Shown: positions 3,624 through 41,376 of the stretch, in pieces
Numbering within the stretch: position 1 is the stretch's first letter
How the letters are laid out: every line of letters starts with the position of its first letter
Source: an uncultured Planctomycetota bacterium
GTDB taxonomy: Bacteria > Planctomycetota > Planctomycetia > Isosphaerales > Isosphaeraceae
Reading direction: 5' to 3'
Length of the DNA: 64,000 bases
Assembly: GCA_963845755.1 (NCBI GenBank)
Contig: CAWJTV010000027.1
Coordinates: 224,001-288,000 of the forward strand
Position numbers and translations under genes: made by a program
Notes under the pieces: generated by a model
Told to the model about the DNA's origin: nothing
The model's input: the letters and a program-made list of their open reading frames with translations, nothing else
Database searches by the model: none

Positions 3624-6600
3624 TTGGGAAAGCGCCGGGGACATCGCGTGCTGCGGGAGGATGGCCGTGGGTTGGAACGCGCTCGTAGTGCTGGCCGTGG
3701 TTGGGTTCGGGGAACCCGCGCCCGCGCGGGATCGACGACGGAGCCGGCCGCCTCGCCGGTCGAATTCAACCGCGACATCCGACCGATCTTGTCGGACACC
3801 TGTTATCCGTGTCACGGCCCCGACTCGGCCCGGCGCAAGGCCAACCTGCGGTTCGATCAGGAATCGTCGGCCCGCGCCGATCGGGACGGCGTCCGCGCAA
3901 TCGTCCCGAGTGATCTCGATGCCAGCGAGCTCTATCAACGGATCACCGCCGAGGACGTCGACCGGCACATGCCGCCGGCAAAATCCGGCAAGTCGCTCGA
4001 TGCGAAGCAGATCAATCTGATCCGTCGATGGATCGCCGAGGGGGCGAAGTGGCAGCCGCACTGGGCCTTTATTCCCCCGAGGCAGCCCGCGGCCCCGCTT
4101 ATCCAGCACCAAGCCTGGGTGCGCAATCCGATCGATGCCTTCATCGTCGCGCGGCTGGAACGCGCGGGGCTCGCGCCGTCGCCCGAGGCGGGGCGGGGCA
4201 TCTTGCTCCGGCGCGTGACGCTCGACCTGACCGGCCTGCCGCCGAGTCGCGCCGAGCTCGCGGCGTTCGAGGGCGACACCGATCCGAACGCCTATGAGAA
4301 GGCCGTCGATCGCCTGCTGGCCTCGCCCCGATTCGGCGAGCGGATGGCGATCCGCTGGCTCAACGCCGCGCGTTACGCCGACACCAACGGCTATCAGACC
4401 GACGCGCCGCGGTTCATGTGGCGATGGCGCGACTGGGTCATCGACGCCTATAACCGCGGCATGCCGTTCGACCGGTTCACGATCGAGCAACTGGCCGGCG
4501 ACCTGTTTCCCGTCGCCACGCTCGACCAGAAGATCGCCACCGGCTTCAACCGCAACCACCGCGGCAACGCCGAGGGCGGGATCATCCCCGAGGAATACGC
4601 GGTCGAGTACGTCGTCGATCGGGTCGACACCACCGCGACCGTATGGCTGGGCCTGACGGTCGGCTGCGCCCGATGCCATAGCCACAAGTTCGACCCGATC
4701 TCGCAGGAAGACTATTATCGCCTCTTCGCCTTCTTCAACAACGTCCCCGAGAACGGGCGGGCGCTCAAGTACGGCAATTCGCCGCCGACCATCGCGGCAC
4801 CCACTCGCAGCCAGCAAGAACAGCTCGACGCACTCCGGCGCAGGCTGGCGGACAAGGAACAGCAGGTCCGAGCCCGAGAGCCGGCGATCGCCGCGGCCCA
4901 GGCCGTCTGGGAGACGTCGATCCTCGGACGTTCGGCATTCGACGACCTCCGGGACGATCACCTCGTCGTTCATCTCGGCTTCGACGAGGATTGCGAGGCC
5001 ACGGGATTGGCCGGGCCCAGGCCGCATTTCCGCGAGGGCCGAGCCCACTTCACGCCCGGTCCGGTGGGATCGGCGATCGCGCTCGACGGCCGCGGTTATC
5101 TCGATGTCGGGAATGTCGCCGCCTTCGGATTCTACGACAAGTTCACGCTCGCCGCGTGGATCAAGCCCGAGGGCGCGCGCGGCGGAGTCATCATCTCGCG
5201 GATGGTCGAGGAATCCCAGGGCGAGGGTTACAGCGTCGTCCTCGACCGGGGCAAGATCCAGGTCAACCTGGTCAAGCGCTGGCTGGATGACGCGATCCGC
5301 GTCGAGACGAAGGCCGCGGTCACACCCGGCGCCTGGACGCACGTCGCGGTCACTTATGACGGCTCGCGAGTTGCCGGCGGGATCAAGATCACTCTCAATG
5401 GTCAGCCCTTGCTATTCACCGTACTTCTGGATGAGTTGAATCAATCGTTCCAGACGAAGGAGCCGTTGCGGATCGGGGCCGGAGGGGGGCCCGGGAATCG
5501 ATTCCCGGGTGCGATCGATGAGGCGAGCGTCTTCGATCGGGCGCTCGATGCCGACGAGATCTCGGTCCTCGCCACGCGCGAGTCGGTCGCGGAGATCGCC
5601 GCGATTCCGCGCGAACGGCGAACGGGCGGCCAGTCGCGGAAGATCCGTCAGGGCTTCCTGGCGACCGAGGCGCCGGCCTCGATCAAGTTGTCGATGATCG
5701 TGCGCGATTCCGCGCGGGCGGAGCTCGACGAATTGATCGAGCACATTCCCACGACGATGGTGATGGAGGAGATGCCGGCCCCGCGCCCGAGCTACGTCCT
5801 GGTCCGGGGACAATACGATCATCGTGGGCCTCGGGTCGAGGCCGGCGTTCCGAAGACGATCGGGGCCTGGCCCGCGGATCGGAAGCCCGACCGGCTCGGG
5901 CTGGCGCGATGGCTCGTGGACCCGGCCAATCCGCTGTCGGCGCGCGTGGCGGTCAACCGCGACTGGCAGATGCTCTTCGGCAATGGGCTGGTCCGCACCG
6001 TGGAGGACTTCGGCGCGCAGGGGGAGCCCCCGAGTCACCCCGAACTCCTCGACTGGCTGGCGACCGAGCTCGTCCGTTCGGGCTGGGATACCAAGGCGAT
6101 GCTCCGCCTCATCGTCACGAGTGCGACATATCGGCAGTCGTCGCGCGTCACGCCCGAGGGTCTCCGCCACGACCCGGAGAACCGCCTGCTCGCGCGCGGG
6201 CCGAGGCTCCGGCTCCCCGCCGAGATGATTCGCGACCAGGCGTTATCCCTGGCGGGACAACTGGTCGAGCGGGTCGGCGGGCCGTCGGTGAAGCCGTACC
6301 AGCCGCCGGGTTTGTGGAACGAGCTGGCGGACGCCGATTATGTCCAGGACCACGGGCCCGATCTGTATCGCCGGGGACTCTACACGTTCTGGAAGCGGAC
6401 CGTCCCGCCGCCCGCGATGGTGGCCTTCGACGCACCGGGGCGCGAGACGTGCATCGTCCGCGAGGTCCGGACCGATACACCGCTCCAGGCGCTCAATGTC
6501 CTGAATGACGTGACGTTCGTGGAAGCCGCCCGGGCCTTCGCCGAGCGGATCATGAGGGACGTTGAGGCGACGCCCGCAGCCCGGCTCGCCTCGGCCTTTT

Positions 6601-6824
6601 TTGCCGCGACCGCCCGGCGGCCGACGGCCGCGGAGGTGAACATCTTGCTCGCCGGCTTCGAGGACCAGTTGGGCCGATTCCGTCGCGACCCCAAGGCGGC
6701 CGGCGCCCTGATCCGCGCCGGCGAGTCGTTGCCCGACCCGCGGCTCGACCCCTGCGAGCTGGCGGCGTACACCACGGTCGCGCAATTGATCCTCAACCTT
6801 GACGAGACGATCACCAAGGAGTAA
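3624..6824 (+). CDS. Planctomycete cytochrome c (PSCyt1) / DUF1549 / LamG / DUF1553 (PSD1) protein
   Basis: VEFNRDIRPILSDTCYPCHGPD, HWAFIPP, NPIDAF, CARCHSHKFDPI, LamG-like WTHVAVTYDG, TPLQAL, C-terminal ILNLDETITKE; a signal peptide in another frame near 3661 suggests an N-terminal frameshift. Confidence 0.92.
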   Translation: MGKRRGHRVLREDGRGLERARSAGRGWVRGTRARAGSTTEPAASPVEFNRDIRPILSDTCYPCHGPDSARRKANLRFDQESSARADRDGVRAIVPSDLDASELYQRITAEDVDRHMPPAKSGKSLDAKQINLIRRWIAEGAKWQPHWAFIPPRQPAAPLIQHQAWVRNPIDAFIVARLERAGLAPSPEAGRGILLRRVTLDLTGLPPSRAELAAFEGDTDPNAYEKAVDRLLASPRFGERMAIRWLNAARYADTNGYQTDAPRFMWRWRDWVIDAYNRGMPFDRFTIEQLAGDLFPVATLDQKIATGFNRNHRGNAEGGIIPEEYAVEYVVDRVDTTATVWLGLTVGCARCHSHKFDPISQEDYYRLFAFFNNVPENGRALKYGNSPPTIAAPTRSQQEQLDALRRRLADKEQQVRAREPAIAAAQAVWETSILGRSAFDDLRDDHLVVHLGFDEDCEATGLAGPRPHFREGRAHFTPGPVGSAIALDGRGYLDVGNVAAFGFYDKFTLAAWIKPEGARGGVIISRMVEESQGEGYSVVLDRGKIQVNLVKRWLDDAIRVETKAAVTPGAWTHVAVTYDGSRVAGGIKITLNGQPLLFTVLLDELNQSFQTKEPLRIGAGGGPGNRFPGAIDEASVFDRALDADEISVLATRESVAEIAAIPRERRTGGQSRKIRQGFLATEAPASIKLSMIVRDSARAELDELIEHIPTTMVMEEMPAPRPSYVLVRGQYDHRGPRVEAGVPKTIGAWPADRKPDRLGLARWLVDPANPLSARVAVNRDWQMLFGNGLVRTVEDFGAQGEPPSHPELLDWLATELVRSGWDTKAMLRLIVTSATYRQSSRVTPEGLRHDPENRLLARGPRLRLPAEMIRDQALSLAGQLVERVGGPSVKPYQPPGLWNELADADYVQDHGPDLYRRGLYTFWKRTVPPPAMVAFDAPGRETCIVREVRTDTPLQALNVLNDVTFVEAARAFAERIMRDVEATPAARLASAFFAATARRPTAAEVNILLAGFEDQLGRFRRDPKAAGALIRAGESLPDPRLDPCELAAYTTVAQLILNLDETITKE

Positions 6825-6826
6825 CC
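6809..6826 (+). repeat. Left copy of 18-bp direct repeat GATCACCAAGGAGTAACC flanking the RAYT cassette
   Basis: Identical to 7819-7836; contains the PSD1 stop codon and AAGGAG. Confidence 0.95.
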
Positions 6827-6827
6827 C

Positions 6828-6946
6828 TTGCCATCGTAGGGTGCTCTGTGAGCACCAATTTGCCATCGTAGGGTGCTCTGTGAGCACCAATTTGCCATCG
6901 TAGGGTGCTCTGTGAGCACCAATTTGCCATCGTAGGGTGCACCAAT
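6828..6946 (+). repeat. Left tandem REP array, 32-bp period: GTAG-GGTGCTC-TGT-GAGCACC with linker AATTTGCCATC
   Basis: REPs at 6836-6856, 6868-6888 and 6900-6920; fourth copy 6932-6943 (GTAGGGTGCACC) lacks 9 internal nt. Confidence 0.97.
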
Positions 6947-6963
6947 TTTTGATTGTCATTCCT

Positions 6964-7533
6964 ATGTCAGATTATCGCCGCTATTTCGCTCCCGGTGGTT
7001 CGTTCTTTTTCACAGTCGTGACGCAAGGGCGCGCCGCGATACTGACCGTCCCCGATGCCAGAGCGATCCTTCACGAAGCTTTCGCGGAATGCCGGCGGCG
7101 CTGGTCGTTCCGGATGGACGCGAACGTTCTTCTCCCGGAGCACCTTCATGCAATCTGGTCTCTTCCCCGAGGAGACGACTGTTACCCGCTGCGATGGGCT
7201 TTCATCAAGAAGGAGTTCACCAAAAGATGGCTACAAACGGGTGGAAGCGAAAAACCAGTCGGTCCTGAGAGAAGGGGACGCCGACGGCGAGGTGTCTGGC
7301 AACCGCGCTATTGGGAACATCTCATTCGCGATGAGGATGATTTTGAACGACATATGGAATACATCCATTACAACCCTGTCAAACATGGACTTGTGGAATG
7401 CCCTCGAGATTGGCCATTCTCCTCTTTCCATAGGTGGGTCCGGCTCGGAGCCTATCATCCGGATTGGGGTTGTGGCTGTCGCGATGCACAGATATTCCGA
7501 TTCGACGACATTGAAAGAACCGCGATGGAATGA
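6964..7533 (+). CDS. rayT: REP-associated tyrosine transposase (RAYT/TnpA-REP, HUH Y1 family)
   Basis: MSDYRRYFAPGGSFFFTVVT N-terminus, HUH motif LPEHLHAIW, WQPRYWEHLIRDEDD, catalytic YIHYNPVKHG, DWPFSSFHR; flanked by GTAG REPs; visibly lower GC than flanks. Confidence 0.95.
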   Translation: MSDYRRYFAPGGSFFFTVVTQGRAAILTVPDARAILHEAFAECRRRWSFRMDANVLLPEHLHAIWSLPRGDDCYPLRWAFIKKEFTKRWLQTGGSEKPVGPERRGRRRRGVWQPRYWEHLIRDEDDFERHMEYIHYNPVKHGLVECPRDWPFSSFHRWVRLGAYHPDWGCGCRDAQIFRFDDIERTAME

Positions 7534-7539
7534 AGACGA

Positions 7540-7813
7540 CTACGAGAGGATCGGTGCTCACAGAGCACCCTACGAGAGGATCGGTGCTCACAGAGCACCC
7601 TACGAGAGGATCGGTGCTCACAGAGCACCCTACGAGAGGATCGGTGCTCACAGAGCACCCTACGAGAGGATCGGTGCTCACAGAGCACCCTACGAGAGGA
7701 TCGGTGCTCACAGAGCACCCTACGAGAGGATCGGTGCTCACAGAGCACCCTACGAGAGGATCGGTGCTCACAGAGCACCCTACGAGAGGATCGGTGCTCA
7801 CAGAGCACCCTAC
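7540..7813 (-). repeat. Right tandem REP array: 9 perfect 30-bp units, reverse orientation
   Basis: GGTGCTCACAGAGCACCCTAC (reverse complement of the left REP) starts at 7553, 7583 ... 7793, separated by identical GAGAGGATC linkers; extra CTAC at 7540-7543. Confidence 0.98.
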
Positions 7814-7818
7814 AAGAG

Positions 7819-7836
7819 GATCACCAAGGAGTAACC
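7819..7836 (+). repeat. Right copy of the 18-bp direct repeat; supplies the SD for the DUF1501 gene
   Basis: GATCACCAAGGAGTAACC followed by GCT and the GTG start at 7840. Confidence 0.95.
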
Positions 7837-7839
7837 GCT

Positions 7840-9302
7840 GTGAGCCCGCTCGTCGAACGACTCCAACTCCAGACGCGCCGGCACTTCTTCGGCCGGGCCA
7901 GCACGGGCCTGGGGACGATCGCGCTGGCCTCGCTGTTCAATGGCAGCCTCGACGCCGCCGAGGGAGGGCCGAATCGATCGGGGGCCGGAGTGGACGGTTT
8001 CCCCAACTTCGCACCCAAGGCCAAGCGGGTGATCTATCTGTTCCAGTCGGGCGCACCCTCGCAGATGGACCTGTTCGACGAGAAACCCGTGCTCCCGCGC
8101 CTCCAGGGTACCGAGTTGCCGGACTCGATCCGGATGGGTCAGCGGCTGACGGGCATGACCTCGCGTCAGGATCGGTTCCCGGTCGCGGCGAGCCGGTTTC
8201 GGTTCGCCCGTCATGGTCAGAGCGGAGCGGCGGTCAGCGACTTGCTGCCTTACACCGCGAGCGTGGTCGATGAGCTTTGCTTCATCAAGTCGATGCACAC
8301 CGAGGCGATCAATCACGACCCCGCCGTCACCTTCTTCCAGACCGGGGCCCAGCTTGCCGGCCGGCCCAGCATCGGCGCCTGGATCTCTTACGGCCTGGGG
8401 AGCGAGACCCACGAGCTGCCCGCGTTCGTCGTCATGATTTCCCAGGGCTCGGGGAACCCCAACGATCAGCCGCTCTACGACCGGCTGTGGGGGAGCGGGT
8501 TCCTGCCGACCACCTATCAAGGGATCAAGTTCCGCTCGCAGGGCGACCCGGTACTGTATCTCTCGGATCCGCCCGGCCTGTCGTCCGCGGCGCGCCGGCG
8601 GATGCTCGACGACCTGGCCCGGCTCGATACGCTGAATCATCGGACCTTCGGCGATCCGGAGATCCTCACGCGGATCGCCCAGTATGAGATGGCGTACCGG
8701 ATGCAGACCTCGGTACCCGAGCTGACCGATCTCTCCGGCGAGCCCGACTCGGTCTTTCAACTCTATGGCCCCGACGCGCCCGGCCCGGGACCTATGCCGC
8801 CAACTGCCTGCTGGCGCGGCGCCTGGCCGAGCGGGGCGTGCGCTTCATCCAGCTCTTCCACCGCGGCTGGGACCAGCACACGCACCTGCCCAAGCAGATC
8901 GCCGGCCAGTGCCGCGATACCGACCAAGCCTCTGCGGCCCTGGTGCGCGATCTCAAACAGCGCGGGATGCTCGAGGAGACGTTGGTCGTCTGGGGCGGCG
9001 AGTTCGGCCGGACCGTCTATTGCCAGGGCCGCTTGACCGCCGAGGACTACGGCCGCGACCATCATCCCCGCTGCTTCACCGTCTGGCTGGCCGGCGGGGG
9101 CATCCAGCCCGGCATCACCCACGGCGCGACCGACGACTACGGGTACAACGTCGTCCAGGACCCGGTCCACGTCCACGACCTGCACGCCACGATCCTGCAT
9201 TGCCTGGGCATCGAGCACACCAAGCTGACCGTCAAGTATCAGGGGAGGCATCACCGACTGACCGACGTGCACGGTACGGTGGTGAAGACGATCCTGGCGT
9301 GA
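7840..9302 (+). CDS. DUF1501 family protein (Tat-like N-terminus); frameshift near 8780
   Basis: [32 protein letters not shown], then [30 protein letters not shown]; usual partner of PSD1 genes. Confidence 0.92.
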
Positions 9303-9362: not shown

Positions 9363-9662
9363 TCAATAATAATATCGGGCCTGGAGAAACTCGACGCGGT
9401 CGCCTTTGATGAGGTAGACGAGGCGATGCTCTCCCGCAATCCGCCGGGACCACGTACCGGCCATCTCATGCTTCAGCGGCTCGGGTTTGCCTAGACCGGT
9501 GAACGGCTCACGGAGCGTAGCTTCGACCAGCTCCAGGACGCGGAAGGCGATTCGGCGGTCAGTCTCGATCCTGAAGCGCAGGTCCTCGCGAAACCTCGAA
9601 TTGAATTCAGCGGCGAGGGGGCCACGCGGTGGTTTCTTCGGTGGCCCATCAGGTTTCTTCAA
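9363..9662 (-). CDS. yoeB: Txe/YoeB family toxin
   Basis: PFTGLGKPEPLKH, WSRRIAGEHRLVY, LQARYYY; probable TTG start overlapping the antitoxin end. Confidence 0.9.
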   Translation of the reverse strand: MKKPDGPPKKPPRGPLAAEFNSRFREDLRFRIETDRRIAFRVLELVEATLREPFTGLGKPEPLKHEMAGTWSRRIAGEHRLVYLIKGDRVEFLQARYYY

Positions 9663-9933
9663 GGCCGAACTCCCGGCGAAGGTCCTCCACCGTTTCCGGG
9701 GGAAGATTCCGGCTTCGGGCTTCCGCGAGAGCCTCCAAGAGCCGTTGAGCATTCTTGGGAGAGCGGAGCAAGTGGGCCGTCTCCAGCAAGCCGCGCAGTT
9801 CATCGGCGGCGATCAGCATGACATCCTCGGCACCTCGCCGGTGAATGATGATGGGCTCTCGCGAAGAGCTCGCCTCATCGCAGAGGGCCGCGAGATGGGC
9901 ACGCGCGTGGCTGTAGGTTGTCTCGGTCGGCAT
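9649..9933 (-). CDS. yefM: Phd/YefM family antitoxin
   Basis: TYSHARAHLA, PIIIHRRG, LETAHLLRSPKNAQRL; GGAGG SD upstream. Confidence 0.9.
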   Translation of the reverse strand: MPTETTYSHARAHLAALCDEASSSREPIIIHRRGAEDVMLIAADELRGLLETAHLLRSPKNAQRLLEALAEARSRNLPPETVEDLRREFGLEET

Positions 9934-9948
9934 AGAAGGTCCTCCGGT

Positions 9949-9972
9949 ATATTGTACAGGAATATTGTACAA
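9949..9972. promoter_or_regulatory. Putative YefM-YoeB autoregulatory operator (two TGTACA palindromes)
   Basis: ATATTGTACA direct repeat, TGTACA at 9953-9958 and 9966-9971; paired TGTACA cores are the known E. coli yefM operator. Confidence 0.75.
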
Positions 9973-23490: not shown

Positions 23491-23558
23491 CTGGTAGGGT
23501 GCGCCGAGAGCACCGGGGGCGGGGCTTGCGCTTCGGTGCTCACGGCGCACCCTACCAG
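23491..23558. repeat. REPIN-like inverted doublet of the RAYT-associated REP
   Basis: GTAGGGTGCGCCGAGAGCACC (23494-23514) and GGTGCTCACGGCGCACCCTAC (23535-23555) between convergent genes. Confidence 0.9.
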
Positions 23559-41311: not shown

Positions 41312-41376
41312 GTAGGGTGCTCAGCGAGCACCGAGGTGCAGGCCCCGGCCGTCCCGGTGCTCACACGGCACCCTAC
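41312..41376. repeat. REPIN-like inverted doublet of the RAYT-associated REP
   Basis: GTAGGGTGCTCAGCGAGCACC (41312-41332) and GGTGCTCACACGGCACCCTAC (41356-41376). Confidence 0.9.

Follow-up and report, generated by a model that had tools for sequence, protein, structure and literature searches.

A RAYT gene between inverted arrays of GTAG-REPs, flanked by a duplicated gene junction in a planctomycete genome

The locus described here lies in a 64-kb window, the whole stretch of DNA that was analysed, and consists of a ∼1-kb cassette in which an intact RAYT gene has a REP array of 32-nt units on its left and one of 30-nt units on its right. The cassette lies downstream of the PSD1/DUF1553 stop codon and upstream of the ribosome-binding site that serves the partner gene, DUF1501. 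These two genes are normally adjacent, and the cassette is wedged between them, flanked on both sides by a 25-nt direct repeat. The PSD1/DUF1553-family gene (3624..6824, plus strand) carries the Pfam domains PSCyt1, PSCyt2, Laminin_G_3 and PSD1 (PSD1 E 2.7e-99), and its product ends in LNLDETITKE with the stop codon TAA at 6822–6824. The C-terminal stop position is the same in 120 of the 120 homologues listed; 54 of them end in exactly LNLDETITKE, while the other endings tallied depart from it at 1–3 positions. Since all listed homologues stop at the same residue, the PSD1 gene end is ancestral and constrained, and it is this native end—the last 7 codons, the stop and CC, with AAGGAG inside—that forms the left copy of the flanking repeat (6802..6826, plus strand). 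At the cassette's opposite side, the DUF1501 gene (7840..9302, plus strand, Pfam match) is spread over two frames, 7840–9036 and 8838–9302, which match profile positions 1–224 and 245–390. The frame changes at ∼8779–8790, within a run of C and G, and this is either a real frameshift, perhaps decay after the insertion, or a sequencing error. Just downstream of this gene, at 9366–9972 on the minus strand, lie genes for an antitoxin of the YefM/Phd type (E 5e-17) and the YoeB toxin paired with it (E 4.3e-28). A promoter and terminator scan of 6700–7950 found nothing.

The RAYT (TnpAREP) gene (6964..7533, plus strand) is apparently intact and encodes 189 aa, a length shared by its three nearest homologues. 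Its reading frame matches the NCBIfam equivalog NF047646 for REP-associated tyrosine transposases with 179.7 bits (cut-off 80, E 2.9e-53) over profile positions 2–146 of 146, and it also matches the structure of E. coli TnpArep (PDB 4ER8, E 2.2e-40). The putative HUH and tyrosine regions align between the two, LPEHLHAIW with LPEHMHCIW and YIHYNPVKHG with YIYINPVKHG. A Pfam search with the protein returned no match even at E ≤ 10, Y1_Tnp (PF01797) included; a precomputed PF01797 label is attached to 16 of the 120 RAYT homologues listed. The GC3 of the gene is 0.545, compared with 0.848 and 0.856 in the neighbour genes, and only 1.3% of 570-nt windows are equally GC-poor. Judged by composition, the cassette appears foreign to its neighbours.

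The REP core at this locus is 21 nt long and consists of GTAG plus a palindrome of 17 nt, whose 7-bp stem closes a 3-nt loop. As in GTAG-tagged REPs, the tetranucleotide is followed immediately by a short perfect palindrome, which folds when the DNA is single-stranded. The left array (6828..6946, plus strand, GTAG orientation) contains three intact units and a defective fourth, each unit being an 11-nt linker, AATTTGCCATC, followed by GTAG and the 17-nt palindrome; TRF places it at 6828–6940 with a period of 32, 3.5 copies and 100% matches, including three exact plus-strand REPs. The fourth unit (6924–6946) has a 9-nt deletion inside the hairpin and has lost its fold. The right array (7540..7822, minus strand) has a period of 30 and 9.4 copies with 99% matches, and its nine intact REPs are exact and on the minus strand, separated by the linker GATCCTCTC in GTAG orientation, or GAGAGGATC on the plus strand. 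It starts 6 nt past the RAYT stop codon with a CTAC box that has no hairpin (7540–7543), and its outermost linker carries a single change (7814). The RAYT-proximal REP unit is hairpin-defective on both sides, through the 9-nt deletion on the left (6932–6943) and as a linker and CTAC without palindrome on the right.

Two-unit folds of the arrays reach −13.9 and −14.0 kcal/mol (z = −3.8 and −3.3), so that the arrays would form rows of hairpins. All REPs of one array have the same orientation, unlike the pairing of a REP with an inverted REP in each unit that characterizes BIME-2. The units of the two arrays are 25/26 identical over TC-GTAG-hairpin-RAT, and each unit of both arrays contains CC|TAC on the strand that reads as inverted REP. 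Seen from the RAYT gene, cognate REPs with identical 21-nt cores bracket it in inverted orientation, 3 on the plus strand to its left and 9 on the minus strand to its right, and the inverted arms of 26 nt are 96% complementary. The locus is a REPtron, an intact RAYT gene with cognate GTAG-REPs inverted on its two sides. The window contains this one RAYT gene and, elsewhere, four diverged REPs in two pairs. Those pairs, at 23494–23555 and 41312–41376, are REPIN-like: their REPs are inverted, GTAG faces outward, and spacers of 20 and 23 nt separate the two copies. Their flanks are unlike those of the RAYT-linked REPs.

The proposal in the preliminary description that the arrays were amplified in place has held up, and head-to-tail multiplication of each array at its present position is well supported by the sequences as the probable origin. 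The units are 99–100% identical within an array, periods and linkers differ between the arrays, and a tandem array like these occurs at 0/96 of the other REP loci listed. P0005, a RAYT relative that is 70% identical, has its own array of 3 units of 39 nt with yet another linker. The same model has been published for REP and BIME arrays (PMC3333891, PMC3733652): BIME copies that stand in tandem at a single locus are described as well conserved, with local amplification proposed to proceed through single-strand circles or rolling-circle-like strand transfer (PMC3333891), and REPs have been described as reiterated in tandem together with flanking DNA (PMC3733652). Two agents may have carried out the amplification here. 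The RAYT enzyme is one candidate: CC|TAC, present in every unit, corresponds to the iREP II-type site at which cleavage by the E. coli enzyme has been mapped, the right array opens with a CTAC box that lacks a hairpin, and the left array begins at the T of CC|T. Replication slippage is the other, and it may be reflected in the loss of 9 nt between GC repeats from the innermost hairpin on the left and in the TT microhomology at the left unit junction.

The array of P0005 is also translated. In this 312-aa protein the N-terminal 120 residues are translated REPs, comprising an inverted REP, a REP in another frame and three 13-aa repeats, LVGCSPSTARPVR, which correspond to the 39-nt head-to-tail array upstream of the RAYT part of P0005. 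Searches for comparable translations of the arrays at our locus gave no candidate for the GAHRAPY frame among proteins of 51–163 aa. For the VGCSVST frame, compared with 1.84 billion representatives, there were 594 matches at E ≤ 0.001, and the best 150 of the 594 are unrelated repeat proteins, none of which contains the REP-encoded peptide.

The direct repeat around the cassette had been described as a 25-bp duplication with 2 mismatches, and this was confirmed: 6802–6826 and 7812–7836 agree at 23/25 positions (92%), and the last 18 nt are identical (6809–6826 and 7819–7836). For the 18-nt repeat, two matches were seen where 0.03 are expected per window, even with 3 mismatches tolerated. The AAG GAG codons at the end of PSD1 double as a ribosome-binding site, and the right repeat copy (7812..7836, plus strand) provides this AAGGAG (7826–7831) 8 nt upstream of the DUF1501 GTG start (7840). 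Because the junction is present twice, PSD1 keeps its conserved last codons and stop and DUF1501 keeps its ribosome-binding site; each gene thus retains what a simple insertion would take from one of them. We infer that the cassette inserted into the tight PSD1–DUF1501 junction and that 14–18 nt of the junction, at most 25 nt, were duplicated in the process; the uninterrupted junction would then have read GACGAGACGATCACCAAGGAGTAACCGCTGTG.

What is unusual about the locus is that this duplication encloses a whole REPtron. Dispersed REP pairs in other genomes showed no flanking duplication, the mean longest shared word being 5.42 in 45 pairs and 5.20 in mismatched controls, and only one of the 45 pairs (10 nt, locus L081) exceeded the longest control word of 9 nt. 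For this reason, the duplication is without precedent in this REP family. In the excerpts of the literature on RAYTs and target site duplication that were available, a description of such a duplication flanking a REPtron was not found. The 10-nt word at L081 (∼287–373) is CTGAGCGCAG, which stands as a direct repeat on either side of the REP pair and is longer than in any of 2000 mismatched controls. The paralogous PSD1–DUF1501 junctions at L044 and L078 belong to other subfamilies and are uninformative for the junction in the window. A further observation concerns an alternative parse of the repeat: when the right array is removed, AGACGA (7534–7539) joined to TCACCAAGGAGTAACC (7821–7836) rebuilds 22 perfect nt of the PSD1 end (6805–6826). 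This 6/6 match (P = 4e-4) would put the right array inside the duplicated segment; since the host has GACGA twice in tandem, we judged the match to be probably chance and set the parse aside.

A duplication of this kind could in principle be made by the RAYT enzyme itself, if it inserted the whole REPtron as double-stranded DNA. Each host strand would be cut at C|T, with 23 nt between the two cuts, and each 3′-OH end of the host would be joined to a 5′ end of the element, itself produced by cutting C|T upstream of the outermost GTAG on that strand; fill-in would then leave a 23-nt duplication. C|T is indeed found at or within 1–2 nt of all the relevant places, the predicted and observed junctions differ by one missing G in the left copy and one substitution in the right copy, and E. 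coli TnpAREP needs only C|T, cuts CC|TAC as well as linkers and carries out strand transfer in vitro (PMC3333891); here the CC|TAC on the inverted-REP strand of each unit in both arrays would offer it sites. However, a dinucleotide as frequent as C|T would be expected near four junctions by chance, the two changes still have to be assumed ad hoc, and dispersed REP pairs lack duplications. In addition, Y1 HUH transposases are described, in the excerpts of PMC3333891 and PMC2817692, as single-strand enzymes that make no target duplication. We regard this mode of insertion as very unlikely.

Apart from the duplication itself, the sequence between the right-array hairpins resembles the host. The preliminary description had noted that the inter-hairpin 11-mer ACGAGAGGATC matches the PSD1 gene end (6802–6812) at 10/11 positions, which we confirmed; the match is 8/9 without the two CTAC-box bases. 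On its own, the 10/11 match is not above chance, since 2.37 occurrences of ACGAGAGGATC within one mismatch are expected per shuffled window, and 2 were seen (6802 and 40373) outside the right array and its terminal copy at 7812. The match carries weight solely because it is in register beside the 18-nt perfect repeat. Given the base composition of the window, the probability of at least 8/9 matches between the interior 9-nt linker and the host is 2e-4, and that of at least 5/7 for the 7-nt extension of the terminal copy is 0.019.

Part of this likeness, though, is shared with the left array. Because the units of the two arrays are 25/26 identical over TC-GTAG-hairpin-RAT, 4/9 of the right-linker bases, namely the AT that follows the hairpin and the TC in front of GTAG, also occur in the left array units, and two more matches of the 11 fall in the CTAC box. 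This leaves only 5 informative linker positions, at which the host matches 4/5 (P = 0.022); at the REP-shared positions it matches 6/6 (P = 4e-4). It could be that the 14–18 nt junction duplication is real and that the further likeness of linker and host arose by accident in a low-complexity stretch with GACGA twice in tandem, a view that draws on the 2 occurrences of ACGAGAGGATC seen for 2.37 expected, on the 5/7 match (P = 0.019) of the terminal-copy extension and on the fact that likenesses had been sought across the whole window. Against it, the match lies in register right beside the perfect repeat, the interior linker reaches 8/9 with P = 2e-4, and the host sequence also equals the commonest 5-mer before GTAG in the REP family (among the matches listed). 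The likeness is too good to be chance in our judgement, and coincidence is the least probable of the accounts that we considered.

The claim that the likeness marks an insertion site had been made for both arrays. On the left, the linker was said to match its own outer flank, and the 8 nt before the first GTAG (6828–6835) do match it. This stretch is, however, the first partial unit of the array itself (the TRF start is 6828) and not host DNA, and for that reason the comparison is circular. The host sequence after TAACC, as given by the right copy, continues as GCTGTG, compared with CTTGCCATC at the left array, so the idea that the left array records its insertion site fell away. About 9 nt of non-host sequence lie between the host and GTAG there.

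On the right, copying from the host would work as follows. The insertion duplicated ∼23–25 nt of host target, the right copy acquired one change, and the outermost REP was then amplified together with 9 nt of host-derived flank, such that the interior linkers copy the host. The 25-nt repeat at 23/25 fits this sequence of events, as does the interior linker, which is intermediate in being one change from the host and one from the terminal copy, and the 8/9 match in register (P = 2e-4) would follow directly. What speaks against copying is that 4/9 of the linker bases occur also in the left array, which cannot stem from that host segment and into which no host target was incorporated, that the informative positions agree at only 4/5 (P = 0.022), and that copying gives no explanation for the linker and CTAC box found innermost in the array, at a distance of 6 nt from the RAYT stop codon. 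It also needs two substitutions within 7 nt beside the REP, both to states typical of the REP family, while the other 18 nt stayed perfect. Taken together, the sequences lead us to lean against a host origin of the right linker, and we consider this account unlikely, though a serious competitor. A combined version, in which the whole REPtron moved as a unit through C|T cuts made by RAYT on both strands (∼23 nt duplicated) and RAYT-driven amplification, unit by unit, then copied part of the duplicated target into every linker on the right, so that the array would record where it inserted, is improbable. If true, this would for the first time provide formal evidence that tnpAREP is mobile and that a Y1 HUH enzyme can duplicate its target; in the excerpted accounts, transposition of REPtrons as a unit is denied, and evidence for the mobility of tnpAREP, or formal evidence of it, is said to be lacking (PMC3333891, PMC8266576, PMC6006769).

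Whether the linker belongs to the element can be judged from REPs at other sites. We scanned genome contigs for the REP core and found it in at least 96 stretches, all of them from other Planctomycetota assemblies and not including the locus in the window. From the stretches listed, the flanks of 141 distinct REP copies at unrelated loci were tallied. The 21-nt core, with only the loop free, occurs in Isosphaeraceae, Gemmataceae, Pirellulales and Planctomycetaceae assemblies (L001–L096), and its conservation appears unusually wide for a REP. Several genomes have REP pairs whose flanks are conserved at least 14 nt past GTAG. The 96 stretches listed contain no RAYT, no short-period array, no empty site and no close relative of the genome in the window; since no sampled genome is close, the family consensus used here is borrowed from distant relatives.

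Among the matches listed, GATCC follows the hairpin in 13/141 REPs where 0.26 are expected, and TCTC or TCTT precedes GTAG in 21/141 where 0.90 are expected. Both halves of the right linker therefore recur beside REPs at unrelated loci. Recurrence of the linker at unrelated loci had been put forward as the outcome that would speak for an element-encoded linker, and it was borne out for the halves and not for the whole: the complete 9-mer is found at 0/141 other REPs listed (the best being 7/9, twice). This absence, which suits copying from the host, counts against an element-encoded linker, as do CTCTC before GTAG at 0/141 and GATC after the hairpin together with TCTY before GTAG at only 1/141 (all among the matches listed). 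The four dispersed REPs within the window, which have neither a GATCC nor a TCTY flank, and the 8/9 in-register host match, which copying explains directly (P = 2e-4), count in the same direction. The host version, GTCTC, is itself the commonest 5-mer before GTAG among the matches listed (8/141 for 0.13 expected, with CGTCTC in 4). This, together with the 6/6 match at the REP-shared positions, makes the host site look like a REP flank.

For these reasons, we prefer a different order of events, to which we assign a probability of roughly 0.5: the host site already resembled REP flanks, this resemblance guided where or how the cassette joined, the linkers are encoded by the element and the duplication proper is the perfect 14–18 nt. 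Before the event, the host site, GATCGTCTC followed by GT, would have been similar to the flanks of REPs. The resemblance probably steered where the cassette was cut in or joined, whether through microhomology (GATC) at the right junction or through a motif that resembles a RAYT target. The right linker (GATCC plus TCTC in GTAG orientation) would then be mostly element-encoded, and its likeness to the host would probably not come from copying. Afterwards, each REP would have multiplied in place head to tail, the unit being the REP with a few bases of its own flanks.

We prefer this account in which resemblance came first because copying in either direction otherwise leaves a coincidence unexplained. 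It accommodates the two differences between the right copy and the host, both of which lead to states common in the REP family, a C that gives GATCC and a T that gives TCTT, while the 18 nt beyond them are unchanged. It would also make the cassette symmetrical, as an element-owned flank of 9 nt on the right would mirror the ∼9 nt of non-host sequence on the left. The anatomy, the duplication, the local amplification and the recurrence of the linker halves are read from the sequences, and the causal direction, the manner of joining and the agent of amplification are what we infer; the data do not firmly separate prior resemblance from copying of host sequence into the linker. As for the original claim that the right linker came from the host, the in-register match of 8/9 (P = 2e-4) stands, and its reading as a copy is weakened by the 4/9 bases common to the left array, by the halves that recur elsewhere and by the 4/5 match at informative positions.

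The locus can be set beside several known systems. REPIN–RAYT systems, as in Pseudomonas, likewise have inverted REP pairs with GTAG outward, of which there are 2 in the window and 45 in the loci listed, and the cassette resembles such an inverted pair with the RAYT gene as spacer. The RAYTs of those systems behave as vertically inherited, single-copy genes; in contrast, the junction duplication and foreign composition here point to insertion. In the E. coli REPtron (tnpAREP/yafM with BIME-2 arrays, PDB 4ER8), a homologous RAYT (E 2.2e-40) is also surrounded by inverted cognate GTAG-REPs that are multiplied in tandem beside the gene, with near-identical copies within a locus and linkers that differ between loci (PMC3333891, PMC2817692). 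The BIME units there alternate REP and iREP, whereas here one REP is repeated head to tail in a single orientation, the host is a Planctomycetota-type genome, and the whole unit is bracketed by an 18–25 nt duplication of a gene junction.

Elements of the IS200/IS605 family (IS608, ISDra2) have in common with this locus a HUH enzyme of the Y1 type, subterminal hairpins that carry a guide tetranucleotide on their 5′ side and a target or cleavage motif that recurs beside the element. They differ in having single-hairpin ends in place of arrays and, according to the excerpts of PMC2817692 and PMC3333891, no target duplication, compared with the 18-nt perfect (25-nt, 23/25) repeat here; the Pfam Y1_Tnp profile, too, scores no match on our RAYT protein even at E ≤ 10. 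GTAG-REP clusters, such as the Thauera GTAG-1 arrays (Di Nocera et al. 2013; PMC3733652), also consist of single GTAG-tagged short palindromes reiterated with few flanking bases, and GTAG-REPs have already been recorded in this phylum (PMC3733652). The account given there, in the parts available, covers whole genomes without linking the flank to a target duplicated on insertion; at our locus, a RAYT cassette has the arrays as its two ends. Both the arrays and the way they arose locally add one more example to a known pattern.

REP sequences fill many bacterial genomes, and how REPs and RAYT genes spread is still unsettled. If array linkers record the insertion site, they would provide a means to date and trace REP insertions; the evidence at this locus does not establish such recording. 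The locus itself—a compositionally foreign RAYT cassette in a conserved, translationally coupled gene junction, with a clean duplication—is, given an empty site for comparison, a rare natural opportunity to dissect how the insertion took place.
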